Positions 2,772 to 46,751 of a DNA stretch of 64,000 nt are shown in pieces. Source of the stretch: an uncultured Planctomycetaceae bacterium (GTDB lineage: Bacteria > Planctomycetota > UBA8742 > UBA2392); NCBI GenBank assembly GCA_964652605.1, contig CAZZBH010000001.1:12670-76669 (forward strand), given 5' to 3'. The position numbers were made by a program, and so were the translations under genes. The notes under the pieces were generated by a model. The model did not search any database. It worked only from the letters and a program-made list of their open reading frames with translations, and was not told where the DNA came from. Each line of letters opens with the position of its first letter. The stretch's first letter is position 1.

Positions 2772-4031
2772 ATGGCAGGACAGGCGGTTTCTGTCGGGCT
2801 GGGTGCGGATCGTGCAACCCGCGCCGAATCTGCATCGGGATGGATTTTCAGCCCGGGATGGGACAAACGCTGGATCATCTTCCCGGCTTTGCTGGCGCCG
2901 GTGCCGCCGCTCGTTTATTACCTTTCGATCTACCTGCTTGGCCGCTTCACGGCGCTGGATGCCGCCACACGCGTCGGCGCTGCCGAAGACATTGTCAGCC
3001 TGTTTGTCATGGTGCTGGTGGGCGGCCCGCACGTCTGGGTTACTTTCACGCGCACCTGGCTTCACCCGGAGTTTCGGCAGCGCGAGCGAATCTGGTTCTA
3101 TGCCAGTTTTGCGGTCGTGCCGACCGTGGCGGTGATGGCACTTTCCAGCGAGTTCACGCGCAAGCTGCTGCTGACCGGGTTTTTCTTCATCGCCAGCCTG
3201 CACATCATTCACCAGCTTTCGTACGTCATCCGTTTCTACCAAGACCGCGATGCGGCAAAGCCCAGCCTGAAGTCGCGGCTGATTGACATCGGCGCGGTCG
3301 TCTTTCCGCTTTATCCGCTAAGCACCTTCCGCATGGTGATGGTGAATGAAGGCAGCATGGCGTTTGCGTGGGCGACGCAGATATTCGGCATTGACCAGGC
3401 ACGCGCGCTGAAATTCAACATCGGCCGCGCGCACCCGATTCTGCCGGAGTTCATCCTGTCGGACTGGTTCTGGATGCTGAACCTGGCGGGCTTCATTGTC
3501 TGCATGAGCTTGTGGGCCGCAAAGTCATTCCGTGAACACGCCGATGGCATTCTGCACAAGCCCAAGTTCATGCTGATCTGCTGCGCGATCGGCGTGGGGT
3601 TGTTCTGCCCGCTGCTGCCCAACCTGGATTCCGCCTTCCAGGGCTTCAACCTCTGGCACAGCCTGCAGTACATCGCGTTGACCTGGTTCATCATGCGCAC
3701 GCAGGTCAAGGGCGGCAATCGGTTGAACCCGTTCGTCCGCTGGCTTAGCGCCGACGACAACAGCGGGCGGCGCTACTACGGCGTTGCGTTTGCCATCGTG
3801 CTTGGGTTGATCGCAGTCATCCTTGGCGTGGCGCTGATCATCAGCAACGTACAGGGTGTGGGCATGCTGGGCGGCGCGGGCGAAGTCGGCTCACTGGGCT
3901 ATCGGCCCGGTGCAATTCTGCAGGCTTACTACCTGTTCGGGTTCGGTTTGCTGCTGACGCACTACTTCCATGATGCGTTCTTCTTCAACATGCACACGTT
4001 CAGCAAGTCTTCCATCAATACCCGGCTGTAA
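2772..4031 (+). CDS. polytopic membrane protein of unknown function with His-rich motifs
   Basis: About 10 hydrophobic segments. Motifs are GGPHVWVTFTRTW, LHIIHQLSY, NLWHSLQY and THYFHDAFFF. The ATG at 2772 was chosen; the ORF is open from 2679. Confidence 0.55.
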   Translation: MAGQAVSVGLGADRATRAESASGWIFSPGWDKRWIIFPALLAPVPPLVYYLSIYLLGRFTALDAATRVGAAEDIVSLFVMVLVGGPHVWVTFTRTWLHPEFRQRERIWFYASFAVVPTVAVMALSSEFTRKLLLTGFFFIASLHIIHQLSYVIRFYQDRDAAKPSLKSRLIDIGAVVFPLYPLSTFRMVMVNEGSMAFAWATQIFGIDQARALKFNIGRAHPILPEFILSDWFWMLNLAGFIVCMSLWAAKSFREHADGILHKPKFMLICCAIGVGLFCPLLPNLDSAFQGFNLWHSLQYIALTWFIMRTQVKGGNRLNPFVRWLSADDNSGRRYYGVAFAIVLGLIAVILGVALIISNVQGVGMLGGAGEVGSLGYRPGAILQAYYLFGFGLLLTHYFHDAFFFNMHTFSKSSINTRL

Positions 4032-25808: not shown

Positions 25809-25990
25809 TTCCGTGCCATCGAAAGTGGCATCGGCGTCCCGCCGATGTAGTGCCATCGGCCTCTGGCCGATGCGCGCCCCGCAGGGGCCGTAGCAACAGG
25901 CCCCGCAGGGGCCGGCAGAGCTTAGCCCGGCCCGTGAGGGCCGGGTCCGGAACGCCTCATCCCCTCTGAGGCCCGTCAGGGCCGACAGAA
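25809..25990. repeat. chain of short GC-rich hairpins in a convergent intergenic region
   Basis: Stems include GCCGATG..CATCGGC, CATCGGCC-TCT-GGCCGATG and CCCGGCCC-GTGA-GGGCCGGG. CCCCGCAGGGGCC occurs twice (25877-25889, 25901-25913). Confidence 0.75.
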
Positions 25991-28530
25991 TTGCCACGTT
26001 GTCCAACACCCCAGCGGCGGCGGGCTGCCAGTGCGGCGGGGATCAGCAGTAGCCACCAGATTGCTGGGCCTGTGCTTGTGGCTGTGCAGTTGCTGCTGCT
26101 TGTGCCCGGGTTGGTGTCTATTGGCGGTGGGGTTGGGGCTGGGTTTATGGTCAGCGTCAGTTGCTGGGTGGCTGTGGTGGCTGTGTCTGTGGCCTGGACG
26201 GTGAAGGTCTCGGTGGTGGCTGTGATGGGGATGCCTGTGATCTGGCCTGCGGCGCTGAGTGTCAACCCCTGCGGCAGGCTGCCCGCGATCACACTGAATG
26301 TGTAGCCGCCCAAGCCGCCGGTGGCTTGCAGGGCCTGATTGTAGCTCTGGCCGACTTCGCCGTCGGGCAGCGTGGTCGTGGTGATCAGCAAGGGCGGCGG
26401 CAGCGCGGCGACAGCCAGTGTCACGTGCACATCGACGACGTTGGTGCCATCGGTGATCTGCACGAGGTAAGTGTGCGTGCCCGCGTCGGCGGCCGTCAGT
26501 GTCCCGGCAGGAGCGACAGTGAGAGTGCTGCCGGCAGTGAACGCGAAGCCTGCGCCGCCGGCTGGGTTGCCCATACCCGGAAACACCGTGCCCAGGCTGA
26601 CCGCTTGCCCGGTGTTAGGATCAGCCAATGCAGCCAGGTCAATGCTGTGGCTGCCATCGTCGCCTTCGGTAAAGCCCGCGGTGTAAGGATTGCCCGGCGT
26701 GCCGTTGCCGCCTGCGGCGCCGGCGATGGTGTGCGTGGGCGGGAGGTCGTTGTTGCTGATGTAGAGTGTGACCATGACCGGCGTGCCATTCACCGCATCA
26801 TGGAACTCGACACGGAATTCATACAAGCCGAGCGGATTGACGGCATCCATCATGCCGGTCCAGGCAAGTGTGATCGGCTGTCCGGGCGGGGGTATGACAG
26901 GCGTGTTCACGCCAACGAGCGGGGTGAACTGGGCGATGCCAGTGACGGTGATCTGGTTTCCCTCAGGATCGGAGAGTTCAAGCTCAGCGTTAACCAGAGG
27001 ATCGCCGGGGTCCACCGCATAGTAATAGGGACCGCCGGCAACGCCGGTGAAGCCGGAGCCGGGCGCAGGGGCCGCTACCGCCGGTGCGTTAACGATGCCG
27101 TTGCCATTGACGGTAAACGTGTAGGGGTGGTTGTTGACGTCGTTGTTATCTATGGATATCTGCAGGTCAAAGGGCCCCGGTGCCGCGGGCTCAATGTAAA
27201 TGGTGAAGGTTGTGCTGCCGTTGAAGGGGATTGAGGTCAGCCCCGGCTGCGACTGCACGCTTGCCGCTGCCAGATTTGCGCCGGGAGTCAAGATAACGGG
27301 CGGGTTGCCTGAAAGTAGAAGATCCGCGGCGTGAGTATTGCGGATGGTGAAGTCCCGGGTGCCGCCGTGCACAAGCACGTCGCCGACTTGCGCCGCCCCG
27401 GCATTGGCCACGGGCGCGGCGCCGGAATCAACACGCATGCTGGGCTCAGGAAACTCATGCGCCCCGGCGTCATAGCGAAAACCCATGGGACGAGGGTTGC
27501 CGAAGATGTCAACGGCAACGCTGCCGAGGGTTACAAAATCCCTCGCCGGCGAGCCTGGCTGCAAGCGCAGATCCTCAAATCCCGGCGTGGTGTTCATCAA
27601 CAGCGGATCAGCATTCAAGCCGTTCAAGTCCCGCCCCGACGCCTGCCACTGCGCCCAGGTTTCGTGATAACTGCTTACCCAAGCAGGCGGAGTCAAGTGA
27701 AAAATATTTCCATCCACACTCTGCGGAAGGGCGGTCGTTGCGATGGCGGCATCCATGCCGTTCAGCTGACAGACAATGTTGTTTTCGAATGTACCCCACG
27801 CATTCTGGCCGATATGTTGAATGCAGCGACCAACGTGGGCGACAATTGTATTGTGTCGCACAATCCATTCCAACCCGGGGTTATTGTTGTAGATGCCATA
27901 GTGATTCACCCCGTATATCCAGTTGTTTTCAATGATCACGTTGTGCATATTTGGATCGGGGCTGTGAATAGACAGCCCTTGCGTTCTGTGACCGAATATC
28001 CGGCACCGGGAAATGCGTATGAATTGCGCCCCTCCACCATAAGCATCAGTTGACCACAATAGGCCGCTGTTGCCCCAGCTAGGCCCGGGACCGATTGTCA
28101 GACCCTCAAGAGTCGTAAACGATATGTTGTGGAAGCTCAGAGGTGCACTACTCCCGAAGCCGCCATAAATATGCTGCAAGGTGGACGCGCCGGTAATCTG
28201 CGGAAACTCTCCCAAGGCGGCCCGAATGGTCAGCGTATTTGTGGCGCTCAGTCCCGGCACCGTCATCGGCGAACCCAAGTTGTCCCGCCCCAGCGCGTAG
28301 GAAGGCTTATTCAGAGCATCGAACGGACCCCCGTCATCGTATACGTCCATGACAACGGGTCCGCTGATGCCAACCGCTTCGAGATCATCAAAGAAGTCGC
28401 CGATATCGCCGTAGTCGAATGCATTGCCAGGGTTGCCGTTGGCACAGGTGTAGGTGCCGCTCAGCTGGGCATGCGCTACTGCGGTGCATGCCGCAGCCGT
28501 CAACACCCAAAGCAAGAAGCAACGAGTCAT
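25957..28530 (-). CDS. surface protein: right-handed parallel beta-helix, Ig-like modules and a Cys-CTERM signal
   Basis: Signal MTRCFLLWVLTAAACTAVAHA. PbH1-like repeats (RISRCRIFGH..., VIIENNWIYG..., VRHNTIVAH..., FENNIVCQ). A late He_PIG-like module (LPDGEVGQSYNQALQATGGLGGYTFSVIAGSLPQGLTL). The C-terminus is SSSNCTATSTGPAIWWLLLIPAALAARRRW. Confidence 0.7.
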   Translation of the reverse strand: MTRCFLLWVLTAAACTAVAHAQLSGTYTCANGNPGNAFDYGDIGDFFDDLEAVGISGPVVMDVYDDGGPFDALNKPSYALGRDNLGSPMTVPGLSATNTLTIRAALGEFPQITGASTLQHIYGGFGSSAPLSFHNISFTTLEGLTIGPGPSWGNSGLLWSTDAYGGGAQFIRISRCRIFGHRTQGLSIHSPDPNMHNVIIENNWIYGVNHYGIYNNNPGLEWIVRHNTIVAHVGRCIQHIGQNAWGTFENNIVCQLNGMDAAIATTALPQSVDGNIFHLTPPAWVSSYHETWAQWQASGRDLNGLNADPLLMNTTPGFEDLRLQPGSPARDFVTLGSVAVDIFGNPRPMGFRYDAGAHEFPEPSMRVDSGAAPVANAGAAQVGDVLVHGGTRDFTIRNTHAADLLLSGNPPVILTPGANLAAASVQSQPGLTSIPFNGSTTFTIYIEPAAPGPFDLQISIDNNDVNNHPYTFTVNGNGIVNAPAVAAPAPGSGFTGVAGGPYYYAVDPGDPLVNAELELSDPEGNQITVTGIAQFTPLVGVNTPVIPPPGQPITLAWTGMMDAVNPLGLYEFRVEFHDAVNGTPVMVTLYISNNDLPPTHTIAGAAGGNGTPGNPYTAGFTEGDDGSHSIDLAALADPNTGQAVSLGTVFPGMGNPAGGAGFAFTAGSTLTVAPAGTLTAADAGTHTYLVQITDGTNVVDVHVTLAVAALPPPLLITTTTLPDGEVGQSYNQALQATGGLGGYTFSVIAGSLPQGLTLSAAGQITGIPITATTETFTVQATDTATTATQQLTLTINPAPTPPPIDTNPGTSSSNCTATSTGPAIWWLLLIPAALAARRRWGVGQRGNSVGPDGPQRG

Positions 28531-41147: not shown

Positions 41148-42383
41148 CTAACCGCGCGGGTTCAGGCGGTAAAAGTGCCGCTTGCCGACCTTGAGCACGC
41201 GCCCCGCCAGGGAGGCGGACAACAATTGCTCGTTGGGGTCAGCCAGTGGGGTTTCCGCGCCCGCGTCGCCGATCAGGCGCGCGCCGCCCTGCTGCACGAT
41301 GCGCCGGGCCTCGCTGCCTGAGACGCCATGGGCCTGCTTCACCAGCGCCCAAGCCGCCGTGCTGCCGTCCTTCAACTCAATCACGGCCTCAGGGATGTCA
41401 TCCGGCAGCTCGCCCTTGCTGAATGTGCCGAGAAACGCCTGCTTCGCGGCCTGCGCGGCTTCAGCGCCGTGCATTTCCTGCGTAATCAGCTGCGCCAGCG
41501 CCAGCTTGGCGTCGCGGGGGTGGGTGTTGTCCGGGTTGCACAGGGTGGCTACACGCTCAGGCATTTCGCGTGTGAGGTGTGTGTACCAGCTCTCCATCAG
41601 CGCGTCGGGGATGCTCATCACCTTGCCGAACATGTCGTTCGGCTCAAGCGTTACGCCGATCGCGTTGCCGAGGCTCTTGGACATCTTCTGCTCGCCGTCG
41701 AGGCCGGCAATGATCGGGCCGGTGATGCAGATCTGTGGCGGCTGACCCTCCTGCTCCTGCAACCTGCGGCCCACCAGCAGGTTGAACAGCTGGTCGGTGC
41801 CGCCGAGTTCGACGTCGGCGCGCACCATCACGCTGTCCCAGCCCTGCATCAGCGGGTACAGAAACTCGTGGATGCTGATCGGGACCTCGTCGCGAAAGCG
41901 CTTGGTGAAGTCGTCGCGCTCCAGCATTCGTGCCACAGTGCTGCGCGAGCACAGCTTGAGCACGTCCAGAAACGACATCTGCGAAAACCACTGGCCGTTG
42001 CGCACAATCTCGGCTTTGTCGAGGTCGAGTACCTTGCCCGCCTGCTGCATGTAGGTCCGGGCGTTGTGATCGACCTGCTCGGGCGACAACTGCGGGCGCG
42101 TCTTGTTGCGGCCGCTGGGGTCGCCGACCATGGCGGTATAGTCGCCGATGATCAGCACAGCCGTATGCCCGTGCCGTTGAAATGCCCGAAGGCGTCGCAG
42201 CGGGACGGTGAAGCCCAGGTGAATATCGGGGCTGCTGGGGTCAATGCCAAGCTTCACGCGCAAAGGCTGTCCGGTTGTGGCCGATTTGCGCAGCCGCTCA
42301 CGCAGCTCCTGCTCGTGGATGACATCCACCGCCCCGCGCAGCAGGTCTTTGAGCTGATCGTCAATCGGCGCGAAGTGGGCCAT
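41148..42383 (-). CDS. tyrS: tyrosyl-tRNA synthetase
   Basis: HIGH-like DIHLGF, the GDYTAMVGDPSG pattern, the KMSKSLGN loop and a C-terminal S4-like domain. It is intact even though its 5' 447 nt lie inside the tandem duplication. Confidence 0.92.
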   Translation of the reverse strand: MAHFAPIDDQLKDLLRGAVDVIHEQELRERLRKSATTGQPLRVKLGIDPSSPDIHLGFTVPLRRLRAFQRHGHTAVLIIGDYTAMVGDPSGRNKTRPQLSPEQVDHNARTYMQQAGKVLDLDKAEIVRNGQWFSQMSFLDVLKLCSRSTVARMLERDDFTKRFRDEVPISIHEFLYPLMQGWDSVMVRADVELGGTDQLFNLLVGRRLQEQEGQPPQICITGPIIAGLDGEQKMSKSLGNAIGVTLEPNDMFGKVMSIPDALMESWYTHLTREMPERVATLCNPDNTHPRDAKLALAQLITQEMHGAEAAQAAKQAFLGTFSKGELPDDIPEAVIELKDGSTAAWALVKQAHGVSGSEARRIVQQGGARLIGDAGAETPLADPNEQLLSASLAGRVLKVGKRHFYRLNPRG

Positions 42384-42386
42384 GCT

Positions 42387-42460
42387 GTTCGGTGTTCCGG
42401 GTTCGGTGTTCGGAGTTTTGTGGCGTCGCAGTTAACACCGAACGTCGAGCACCGAACAAC
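42387..42460. repeat. intergenic hairpin with heptamer-periodic arms (second copy at 43891-43964)
   Basis: Left arm TTCGGTG TTCCGGG TTCGGTG TTCGGAG. Right arm CACCGAAC..GCACCGAAC. It lies between the H1-like gene stop and the tyrS start. Confidence 0.8.
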
Positions 42461-42463
42461 GCA

Positions 42464-43156
42464 CTACTCGTCGCCTTCTTCGCCGACTTCGTCGAACAGC
42501 GGGTCGTAGTCTTCCAGCTCATCTTCGTCATCGAACAGGCGGCCCGCGGTGCTGGGCTTGGGCGCGTCGCCTGTGCGCTTGAAGGGCTCAACGGCCGCCT
42601 GGCGCATGGTTTCATAGTCGTCCACGTCCACGGGCTCGTTGTCGAATGTGCCTGTGGCGGGCTTGGCGGTTGCCGCCACGGCCTGTTGCTTTTCGGCGGG
42701 CTTGTCAGCCGATTTCTTTGCGGTTGTCTTGCTGGGCACTGGATTCTTCTTCCCTGATGCGCGAGAGGTCTGCTTTGCGGGTTTGGCCGCCTTGCCAGCC
42801 GGCTTCTTTGCTGCCTTGCGTGCGTCCTTGTTTGCGGTCTTGCTGGATTTCTTGCCGGCAGCCCCGGAGCGGCTTGGCTTGGGCGATTTGCGGGCTGCCT
42901 TCCTGGCCGTCTTGCCGGATGGTTTGCTTGCCACCCTTTTCGTGGTCTTTTTCAGTGCCTTTTTCGGTGCCTTTTTCGCAGATTTTGCAGCGGACTTCTT
43001 CACGGCGGCCTGCTTGCCAGCTTTCTTGGCAGCTTTCTTGGCAGCTTTCTTGCCAGCTTTCTTGGCAGCTTTCTTCACGACCTTCTTCGTGACCTTCCTT
43101 GCTGATTTGCCGCGGGTGCCCGCCCGGGCCTTCTTTGCCTTCGTCTTGCCCGCCAT
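42464..43156 (-). CDS. histone-H1-like Lys/Ala-rich basic protein with an acidic C-terminal tail (copy 1)
   Basis: 230 aa from the ATG at 43156. A long (A/K)KKA(A/G)KK tract is followed by the acidic end DDEDELEDYDPLFDEVGEEGDE. Confidence 0.7.
   Translation of the reverse strand: MAGKTKAKKARAGTRGKSARKVTKKVVKKAAKKAGKKAAKKAAKKAGKQAAVKKSAAKSAKKAPKKALKKTTKRVASKPSGKTARKAARKSPKPSRSGAAGKKSSKTANKDARKAAKKPAGKAAKPAKQTSRASGKKNPVPSKTTAKKSADKPAEKQQAVAATAKPATGTFDNEPVDVDDYETMRQAAVEPFKRTGDAPKPSTAGRLFDDEDELEDYDPLFDEVGEEGDE
43017..43076. repeat. 5 x 12-bp tandem repeat inside the H1-like gene (also at 44521-44580)
   Basis: (C/G)CAGCTTTCTTG occurs five times, encoding KKAAKKAGKKAAKKAAKKAGK. Confidence 0.9.
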
Positions 43157-43339
43157 CGAGACCTCCGTGGAAACTGCACCCACTCGCCCGCACCACGCCA
43201 ATACAAACCCGCAGGTCTGTGTCAAGCCGGATGTTCCATTCGGGCAGACGGCACCGCCTGCCGCCGGTCAATTCTCCACGCTCTCTAACATCCGCTCGAC
43301 ACGCGTTGTTGTTGTCGCGGTTGCGCCTACACTCGACCC

Positions 43340-43440
43340 ATGCCGATCCGCCTGCTGCCGCCTGAAATCGCCAACAAAATCGCCGCCGGCGAGGTGGTTG
43401 AGCGGCCAGCCAGCGTGGTCAAAGAGCTGGTAGAAAACGC
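43340..43440 (+). pseudogene. truncated mutL 5' fragment (first 33 codons) at the duplication junction
   Basis: [33 protein letters not shown] is identical to the start of intact mutL at 44844. It then reads into antisense tyrS sequence. Confidence 0.85.
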
Positions 43441-43887
43441 AGTGCTGCGCGAGCACAGCTTGAGCACGTCCAGAAACGACATCTGCGAAAACCACTGGCC
43501 GTTGCGCACAATCTCGGCTTTGTCGAGGTCGAGTACCTTGCCCGCCTGCTGCATGTAGGTCCGGGCGTTGTGATCGACCTGCTCGGGCGACAACTGCGGG
43601 CGCGTCTTGTTGCGGCCGCTGGGGTCGCCGACCATGGCGGTATAGTCGCCGATGATCAGCACAGCCGTATGCCCGTGCCGTTGAAATGCCCGAAGGCGTC
43701 GCAGCGGGACGGTGAAGCCCAGGTGAATATCGGGGCTGCTGGGGTCAATGCCAAGCTTCACGCGCAAAGGCTGTCCGGTTGTGGCCGATTTGCGCAGCCG
43801 CTCACGCAGCTCCTGCTCGTGGATGACATCCACCGCCCCGCGCAGCAGGTCTTTGAGCTGATCGTCAATCGGCGCGAAGTGGGCCAT
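43441..43887 (-). pseudogene. truncated tyrS 5' fragment (first about 148 codons) at the duplication junction
   Basis: ORF 43327..43887 is identical to TyrRS residues 1-148, then continues out of context through antisense mutL. Confidence 0.85.
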
Positions 43888-43967
43888 GCTGTTCGGTGTT
43901 CCGGGTTCGGTGTTCGGAGTTTTGTGGCGTCGCAGTTAACACCGAACGTCGAGCACCGAACAACGCA

Positions 43968-44660
43968 CTACTCGTCGCCTTCTTCGCCGACTTCGTCGAA
44001 CAGCGGGTCGTAGTCTTCCAGCTCATCTTCGTCATCGAACAGGCGGCCCGCGGTGCTGGGCTTGGGCGCGTCGCCTGTGCGCTTGAAGGGCTCAACGGCC
44101 GCCTGGCGCATGGTTTCATAGTCGTCCACGTCCACGGGCTCGTTGTCGAATGTGCCTGTGGCGGGCTTGGCGGTTGCCGCCACGGCCTGTTGCTTTTCGG
44201 CGGGCTTGTCAGCCGATTTCTTTGCGGTTGTCTTGCTGGGCACTGGATTCTTCTTCCCTGATGCGCGAGAGGTCTGCTTTGCGGGTTTGGCCGCCTTGCC
44301 AGCCGGCTTCTTTGCTGCCTTGCGTGCGTCCTTGTTTGCGGTCTTGCTGGATTTCTTGCCGGCAGCCCCGGAGCGGCTTGGCTTGGGCGATTTGCGGGCT
44401 GCCTTCCTGGCCGTCTTGCCGGATGGTTTGCTTGCCACCCTTTTCGTGGTCTTTTTCAGTGCCTTTTTCGGTGCCTTTTTCGCAGATTTTGCAGCGGACT
44501 TCTTCACGGCGGCCTGCTTGCCAGCTTTCTTGGCAGCTTTCTTGGCAGCTTTCTTGCCAGCTTTCTTGGCAGCTTTCTTCACGACCTTCTTCGTGACCTT
44601 CCTTGCTGATTTGCCGCGGGTGCCCGCCCGGGCCTTCTTTGCCTTCGTCTTGCCCGCCAT
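43968..44660 (-). CDS. histone-H1-like Lys/Ala-rich basic protein (copy 2, identical)
   Basis: Translation identical to 42464..43156, lying inside the second duplication unit. Confidence 0.7.
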   Translation of the reverse strand: MAGKTKAKKARAGTRGKSARKVTKKVVKKAAKKAGKKAAKKAAKKAGKQAAVKKSAAKSAKKAPKKALKKTTKRVASKPSGKTARKAARKSPKPSRSGAAGKKSSKTANKDARKAAKKPAGKAAKPAKQTSRASGKKNPVPSKTTAKKSADKPAEKQQAVAATAKPATGTFDNEPVDVDDYETMRQAAVEPFKRTGDAPKPSTAGRLFDDEDELEDYDPLFDEVGEEGDE

Positions 44661-44843
44661 CGAGACCTCCGTGGAAACTGCACCCACTCGCCCGCACCAC
44701 GCCAATACAAACCCGCAGGTCTGTGTCAAGCCGGATGTTCCATTCGGGCAGACGGCACCGCCTGCCGCCGGTCAATTCTCCACGCTCTCTAACATCCGCT
44801 CGACACGCGTTGTTGTTGTCGCGGTTGCGCCTACACTCGACCC

Positions 44844-46751
44844 ATGCCGATCCGCCTGCTGCCGCCTGAAATCGCCAACAAAATCGCCGCCGGCGAGGTG
44901 GTTGAGCGGCCAGCCAGCGTGGTCAAAGAGCTGGTAGAAAACGCACTGGATGCCGGTGCCACCCGCATTGACGTGCAGCTTGTGGACGCGGGAAAAACCC
45001 TGATACGCGTAGCCGACGACGGCATCGGCATGGACCGCCAGGACCTGCTGCTGGCATTCGAGCCGCACGCCACCAGCAAGATCACCGACGTCGAGGACCT
45101 GTTTCAGGTTTCCACCCACGGCTTTCGCGGCGAGGCGCTGGCCAGCATCCAGAGCGTTTCGCGCGCCAGCATCACTACCCGCACGCGCGCCGCGGCGGCT
45201 GCGCTGACGCTGGAATGCGCCGGCGGGCGCGTCGGCGAGGTGCGCGAAGCCGCCGGCGATTACGGCACCATCATCGAGGTGCGCGACCTGTTCTTCAACG
45301 TTCCCGCGCGCAGGCGCTGGCTTAAGGGCGACGGCACCGAGTTCAGCCATGTCGTCGAGTGGCTGACCGGCTTGGCCGCCGCCAACCCTGAAGTCGGGTT
45401 CACGCTGCGCCACGGCGAGCGCAAGGCGCTGGAAGTCCCGCCGCGGCAAGAAGCCGCTGAGCGTGTGCGGACGCTGTTCGCCGACCGCTTTCCCGAGGGA
45501 CTGCTGGAGGTGCATGAGTACGAGGGCTACGGGCGACTTGATGGCTACATCGCGCCGCCGGCGACGCACCGCCCCAACAGCAAGGGCCTGCTGCTGTACG
45601 TGAACCGGAGGTTGATCCGTGACCGCTCGTTGATGCAGGCGGCACTGCTGGCCTATCGCGAGTTTCTTCCGCCCGGGCGCTACCCGGTGGCGGTGCTGTT
45701 CTTGACGATTCCGCCCGACACTGTGGACGTCAACGTGCATCCCGCCAAGACCGAAGTGCGGCTGCTGGAGCAGAACCGCATCTTTGCCCTGATCAAGTCC
45801 AGCCTGACCGAAAAACTGCTCAACGCCGGCGTGCTGCCCACCTTCAAGCCGACGGGTGCGTGGGGCCCGCAGGCCCGGCCCGACACGCAGCACGAGCCGC
45901 GCTTTGACCTGGATCAGCCCAGGCTGTTCGACGCCGACGCGGAATCCCGCGCCCGGCAAGCCGAACAGCGCTGGAGCGAAGCACGGCGCGTGCTAGAGGA
46001 TGTGGTGGGGCCGAGTGTCTCACGCTTCGAGGTGCGACAGCCGGGTGAGCGCGGATCGGAAATCGGGCACCGGGAATCGCATGAGCGGCAGCCGGCAGGC
46101 GGCAGTTGGCAACCGGACACCGCTGGGGGGCCTTTGCCAGGTCCCCAATCGCCGGTCCCCAGCCCCCAAACCCTGATCACCCGGGCCCGCGCGCTGTTCC
46201 AGGTGGGCGCGACATTCATTGTTGTCGAAACGGAAACCGGCATGGTTCTGATCGATCAGCATGCCTACCACGAGCGCATCCTGTACTGGCTGCTGGAAAA
46301 CCGCATCCAGAGCAACCCGCCCGAGCGCCAGCGCCTGCTGGTGCCGCAGCCGCTTAATCTGTCGCCCGCGGCGTCGGCGCTGGTGGAGGCGCACCGCGAG
46401 ACACTGCGAGAGTTCGGGTTTGAACTGGCACCCCATCCGCCGGGGTGGGCGTTGACCGCGATCCCCAAGTACAGTGTCAGCGGCAAGCACCAGGAGGTCG
46501 TGCAGGAGATCGTCGAGGAGCTGGCCAACGACCGCGCGCCACAAACACCCGAGGCTCTGCGCAAAAGCATGGTCGAAATGGTCGCCTGCAAAGCCGCAAT
46601 CAAAGCCGGCGACACGCTTGAGCCCCGGCAGATTCTGGACCTGCTCAAGCTCGGCGAGACGGTGCCGCACACGTTCTCATGCCCGCACGGCCGGCCAACC
46701 ACCTATCAGCTCAGCTTCACAGACCTCGAGAAGCTATTCCATCGTCGGTAA
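44844..46751 (+). CDS. mutL: DNA mismatch repair protein MutL
   Basis: GHKL ATPase N-terminus ([40 protein letters not shown]) and a C-terminal dimerisation/endonuclease domain (ACKAAIKAGD, CPHGRP). Confidence 0.9.
   Translation: MPIRLLPPEIANKIAAGEVVERPASVVKELVENALDAGATRIDVQLVDAGKTLIRVADDGIGMDRQDLLLAFEPHATSKITDVEDLFQVSTHGFRGEALASIQSVSRASITTRTRAAAAALTLECAGGRVGEVREAAGDYGTIIEVRDLFFNVPARRRWLKGDGTEFSHVVEWLTGLAAANPEVGFTLRHGERKALEVPPRQEAAERVRTLFADRFPEGLLEVHEYEGYGRLDGYIAPPATHRPNSKGLLLYVNRRLIRDRSLMQAALLAYREFLPPGRYPVAVLFLTIPPDTVDVNVHPAKTEVRLLEQNRIFALIKSSLTEKLLNAGVLPTFKPTGAWGPQARPDTQHEPRFDLDQPRLFDADAESRARQAEQRWSEARRVLEDVVGPSVSRFEVRQPGERGSEIGHRESHERQPAGGSWQPDTAGGPLPGPQSPVPSPQTLITRARALFQVGATFIVVETETGMVLIDQHAYHERILYWLLENRIQSNPPERQRLLVPQPLNLSPAASALVEAHRETLREFGFELAPHPPGWALTAIPKYSVSGKHQEVVQEIVEELANDRAPQTPEALRKSMVEMVACKAAIKAGDTLEPRQILDLLKLGETVPHTFSCPHGRPTTYQLSFTDLEKLFHRR

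Follow-up and report, generated by a model that had tools for sequence, protein, structure and literature searches.

An exact 1.5-kb tandem repeat spanning the tyrS-mutL interval in a draft genome of an uncultured Planctomycetaceae bacterium: a possible young duplication that is not fixed

The window analysed here is a 64,000-nucleotide stretch from an uncultured Planctomycetaceae bacterium (assembly GCA_964652605.1, contig CAZZBH010000001.1, positions 12,670 to 76,669 of the forward strand), and coordinates count from its first base unless another contig is named. Within this window, the 5′ part of tyrS, a gene for a Lys/Ala-rich basic protein (called H1-like below) and the 5′ end of mutL stand twice in a row. 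We read this array as a very young tandem duplication without homology at its ends, present in part of the sampled population and not fixed, and give this reading a probability of about one half. It is favoured because the copies are joined through 2 nt without an N, because no second event of this kind is found in 3.84 Mb, because no local cause for contig ends is apparent at the breakpoints, and because the population comprises two haplotypes. The two copies and the joint between them are located as follows.

41937..43440, no strand: unit copy 1, 100% identity at offset 1504
43441..44944, no strand: unit copy 2, 100% identity at offset 1504
43439..43442, no strand: novel junction ...GAAAACG-CA-GTGCTG..., leading from mutL codon 34 (sense) into the interior of tyrS (antisense)

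A repeat finder and a whole-genome self-BLAST agreed that 41936-43441 equals 43440-44945 at 100% identity, with a longest identity run of 1506 bases at offset 1504. The array is a head-to-tail tandem repeat of a 1504-bp unit plus a 2-nt CA overlap that is common to both parental breakpoints. The copies are directly adjacent and exact, they meet at one clean junction, and the window contains 0 Ns. On the minus strand, the unit carries tyrS codons 1-149, a strong hairpin and the 230-aa Lys/Ala-rich gene; the remainder consists of the divergent intergenic region and of mutL codons 1-34, the latter on the plus strand. The original prediction, made from the sequence of the window, had the segment 41937-43440 recurring at 43441-44944, the translations of all open reading frames (ORFs) repeating at an offset of +1504, and mutL being joined to the interior of tyrS through a 2-nt CA. 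The recurrence proved exact base for base, every ORF in the unit does recur at +1504, and the CA overlap was recovered. The joint had been placed at mutL codon 33, which is correct as to the gene and one codon short in the count.

A 1.5-kb exact repeat cannot be a product of chance; a 2-nt overlap can. Among 200,000 random joins drawn from the window, 18% showed an overlap of 2 nt or longer, so the CA does not speak for a mechanism driven by microhomology. The identity ends 2 nt past the unit, where the flanks show scattered matches only, and no further homology was found beside either breakpoint. Both breakpoints lie inside unique sequence without a flanking repeat, and the outer boundaries are free of direct repeats of at least 35 bp.

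These features bear on how such a joint could form. Microhomology-mediated end joining (MMEJ), like the array studied here, is associated with a direct tandem repeat and a short common word at the joint, and is usually ascribed 5-25 bp of homology (bioRxiv 10.64898/2026.05.22.727201). Unlike such cases, the array has an overlap of only 2 nt, below a junction microhomology of about 5 bp or more and within chance (P(2 or more) = 0.18), and does not qualify; MMEJ was rejected on these grounds, and the description of the event as microhomology-mediated in the original prediction has to be given up. Ku-dependent end joining was also rejected as a supported mechanism, because the genome, at 88% completeness, yielded no Ku. 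An excised 1.5-kb circle would yield the same joint and was rejected because nothing in the unit suggests a mobile element.

Duplications with short junctions have been described in Salmonella and Escherichia coli. Bacterial tandem duplications with near-blunt junctions (0-4 bp) form a recognised class that fits template switching or end joining, and the tool Tandem has classified near-blunt duplications without a homologous-recombination signature in Pseudomonas fluorescens SBW25 lines (bioRxiv 10.64898/2026.05.22.727201). The array resembles these cases in its head-to-tail arrangement, in the lack of a flanking repeat, in the 2-nt overlap and in its perfect copies, and, as for near-blunt duplications, instability is expected where RecA is present. 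It differs from them in two respects: the SBW25 and short-junction cases are read-supported and usually under selection, whereas here there is one draft assembly from an uncultivated population, and the unit is 1.5 kb here versus tens to hundreds of kb there.

For the young, unfixed duplication that we favour, the following course of events may be proposed. A replication template switch or an illegitimate join would have led from mutL codon 34 back into tyrS at codon 149, in an event that was probably neutral or nearly so, and the product would be carried by part of the population without having been fixed. Where cells are RecA-proficient, perfect tandem repeats of 1.5 kb are expected to come and go, and hence to be polymorphic. 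This genome does encode RecA, and repeated deletion of the duplication by recombination between its identical copies should leave the locus polymorphic. A graph-based short-read assembler that met the junction would then go once round the loop of unit, junction and unit, with the result that two copies are printed. Graph assemblers can print A-B-A forms through one pass of a loop, and ordinary read pairs do not allow them to determine how many copies of a 1.5-kb unit there are.

An independent view of the locus came from one other contig that encodes the exact 230-aa H1-like product, the 3118-bp Logan contig SRR9016294_169710 (L001). It corresponds to window positions 41671-43440 joined to 44945-46292, which is the collapsed, single-copy arrangement, and it crosses both breakpoints, extending 266 bases past the left one and 1348 past the right one with no break at either. 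According to the Logan paper, such contigs are non-branching paths of a k=31 de Bruijn graph after simplification, in which every 31-mer is distinct. Since L001 passes both breakpoints, SRR9016294 either had no junction branch or had one so weak that pruning removed it, and the dominant allele of this run is the single-copy one. Over 3.1 kb, L001 differs from the draft by 2 single-nucleotide polymorphisms that are 18 bp apart and <150 bp from the left breakpoint, namely 41789 (G>A, synonymous) and 41807 (G>T, TyrRS L193I), which indicates at least two haplotypes of the population. Logan contigs at 100% identity to the window were found in SRR9016294 (L010, L012), SRR9016295 (L011) and SRR31189351 (L013), indicating that the same population is present in three runs. 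Because L001 is single-copy, the duplication, if real, is not fixed or not in every sample. The original prediction had offered a very recent duplication or an assembly artefact; both remain live, with the former now restricted to a duplication that is not fixed or not in every sample.

The artefact is a serious contender, to which we assign somewhat less than even odds. It would mean that no cell holds two copies, and that the joint arose either from a chimeric molecule, formed in library preparation or whole-genome amplification and present at assembly depth, or from concatenation after assembly, when scaffolding, contig merging or bin reassembly placed two contigs sharing 1.5 kb end to end. 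A number of results weigh against a real duplication and toward such an error. The duplication is known here from assembled sequence. L001, the only independent assembly, lacks the duplication and is single-copy across both breakpoints in a run that contains the population at 100% identity. The duplication is private to one record. The junction word GGTAGAAAACGCAGTGCTGCGCGAG (the two parental breakpoint words being TTCGTGCCACAGTGCTGCG and GAAAACGCACTGGATGCC) had 0 matches in the assembled genome contigs collection. For the 186-aa chimeric ORF that spans the joint, the exact-product look-up was empty and the homology search matched only this genome's own contig. A look-up of TyrRS residues 1-149, the product of a contig cut at the left breakpoint, gave no match, and one of MutL residues 1-34 returned only a contig of another organism with different neighbours and 83% DNA identity over 102 bases (84% in a 106-base BLAST alignment). 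The latter is a cut product, and cut products are thus indexed. In addition, the draft is fragmented and scaffolded with 3% contamination, a 1.5-kb unit exceeds the span of ordinary read pairs, and a 2-nt overlap is what random joining gives. The junction word also had 0 matches in JGI metagenome contigs; the wild-type mutL word had 0 matches there as well, so the organism is not in that collection and the negative result for the junction is uninformative.

The structure of the joint argues in the opposite direction. Graph assemblers require real junction k-mers and prune rare chimeras, and overlap merging needs long overlaps or leaves Ns, whereas the joint has 2 common bases and no N. A 2-nt join cannot come from k-mer or overlap merging, and junction-bearing reads therefore most likely existed. 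De Bruijn loop traversal has much in common with the array, including an exact A-junction-A form that is longer than a read pair, a scaffolded draft, and a collapsed form in the k=31 assembly of a sister run; however, a graph loop still needs junction k-mers, so that traversal explains the printing of two copies and not the source of the joint. L001 is unbroken at both breakpoints, and nothing else locally explains why contigs should end there. Finally, the whole-genome self-BLAST showed no other exact tandem repeat >150 bp in the 3.84 Mb of the genome; no similar duplication was seen elsewhere and no k-length overlap at the joint, and nothing points to a systematic assembler fault.

The draft itself consists of 222 contigs and is 87.7% complete. 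The N runs in these contigs measure exactly 10 or 100, which identifies a scaffolded assembly, most likely made from short reads. The next longest exact repeat lies on contig C37 (2852-3641 and 4806-5595; 790 bp, 1954 bp apart) and comprises the 3′ end and terminator (AAAAAGGGCCGGTTTCCCGGCCCTTTT) common to two tandem paralogues of ~700 aa, whose 5′ parts differ. This repeat is also of the A-B-A loop form and could be the result of gene conversion or of another assembler loop. Among the dispersed repeats, ~300 bp of the window (25825-26122; C1:38494-38791) are 95-98% identical to pieces of C67, C74 and C93, and a separate repeat family of 250-310 bp links C2, C11, C14, C71, C123 and C150. RecA gave two full-length matches (429 and 424 bits) on separate contigs, C41:9298-10080(-) and C53:15966-16751(+), which could represent a genuine second recA or stem from another strain or organism binned with the first.

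The age of the duplication was assessed from related genomes, a comparison that the original prediction had itself proposed. DNA of tyrS and mutL was found in all 22 of the other genomes of the family, 0.6-0.9 kb apart where both genes are on one contig. The six loci examined come from relatives within the genus or family, and each of them has mutL, the Lys/Ala-rich gene and tyrS once and in this order; the syntenic middle protein is 36-50% identical to the H1-like protein. All six relatives are single-copy, as is L001, and this ancestral arrangement outside the draft indicates a very young duplication confined to this record. The copies are 100% identical and the relatives have one copy, which led us to reject an ancient or conserved duplication.

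The genes, ORFs and hairpins in and around the array are listed below.

41148..42383, minus strand: intact tyrS (TyrRS, 411 aa); Pfam PF00579 tRNA-synt_1b, E 1.4e-71, positions 3-291 of 292
42387..42460, minus strand: hairpin copy 1, located after the H1-like stop and ahead of the tyrS start; RNA fold -34.1 kcal/mol, z -3.0
42464..43156, minus strand: gene for the Lys/Ala-rich basic protein (H1-like by composition, 230 aa from ATG), copy 1
43327..43887, minus strand: chimeric ORF, 186 aa; TyrRS residues 1-149 plus 37 aa of antisense mutL
43340..43558, plus strand: ORF of the mutL 5′ fragment, 72 aa; MutL residues 1-34 plus 38 aa of antisense tyrS
43891..43964, minus strand: hairpin copy 2, a repeat of copy 1
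43968..44660, minus strand: H1-like gene copy 2, identical to copy 1
44844..46751, plus strand: intact mutL (635 aa); Pfam HATPase_c_3, DNA_mis_repair and MutL_C

Of tyrS and mutL, one intact copy each is left, as the original prediction had stated and as full-length Pfam matches confirm for both, and the H1-like gene occurs twice together with its hairpin, the stem of which stops 4 nt ahead of the tyrS AUG. Both flanking essential genes keep their native upstream DNA, and a carrier gains a second full H1-like gene and two junk ORFs. The chimeric 186-aa ORF exists as predicted, with 149 shared TyrRS residues in place of the 148 given at first. Its TyrRS part includes the HIGH region and lacks the KMSKS and anticodon-binding part, while the MutL fragment ends within ATPase motif I; both fragments are presumably inert.

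The contig returned in the MutL 1-34 look-up (L015; Logan ERR15113708_211826, 8477 bp, in 2 samples, match at 3001-3102) ends exactly after MutL codon 34, with identical 34 residues. That it ends at the same place as the right breakpoint is probably a coincidence, and metagenome assembly graphs may often branch at the conserved ELVENA motif. Exact-product look-ups of the 253-aa H1 ORF, the 411-aa TyrRS, the 635-aa MutL, TldD and a 1070-aa protein gave no match, and a literature search on the run identifiers returned nothing relevant.

The H1-like protein contains 23% K and 20% A, with K+R at 36% in residues 1-170 and an acidic tail in which D+E reach 37% of the last 60 residues. No Pfam family matched it at E<=0.01, and its NCBIfam matches were insignificant (E about 0.3). 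No curated family model for histone H1, Hc1 or AlgP-type basic nucleoid proteins matched, so that the likeness to these proteins is one of composition. The term histone-H1-like used in the original prediction can be kept for the composition, which does resemble that of H1, and not as a family assignment; we use H1-like as a compositional label for a putative DNA-binding protein. A 12-bp periodicity (AAG AAA GCN GCN words) is found inside the gene at 42925-43109 and 44429-44613, and is identical in the two copies and in L001, with no variation in repeat number seen among them.

The same protein is central to a further explanation that we regard as improbable, in which the duplication is real, stands at high frequency and was selected for a higher dosage of the basic DNA-binding protein, possibly with more than two copies. 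The H1-like gene does lie in the unit in full, along with the non-coding regions on either side of it, and the neighbouring genes are spared; the two copies given by the assembler are a lower bound on the copy number. Dosage amplification is also a well-known route of bacterial adaptation. However, any duplication of such a size at this place carries some whole gene, so the gene content of the unit is no sign of selection; nothing indicates that the dosage of the protein matters, its function being assigned by composition; the allele assembled in SRR9016294 is the single-copy one; and no relative has two copies. That one strain maintains a real duplication, possibly at >2 copies, through an advantageous dosage of a Lys/Ala-rich nucleoid-type protein is very unlikely in our view. 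If it were true, a gene amplification would be segregating in the wild beside a single-copy sister haplotype with TyrRS L193I. The doubled dosage foreseen in the original prediction would apply at most to a subpopulation, as L001 of SRR9016294 is single-copy.

Either this is an ordinary event of a kind already known, or no such event took place, and only reads can separate the two. If it is an artefact, one extra gene and one 186-aa "tyrosine-tRNA ligase fragment" in the public record are false. In either case, two H1-like genes or a truncated tyrS paralogue should not be counted for this organism without checking the reads. If the young, unfixed duplication is real, it would be another example of the commonest bacterial structural mutation, caught in an uncultivated population, and its sole functional change would be a second complete Lys/Ala-rich gene, with a mild possible dosage effect on a basic DNA-binding protein.

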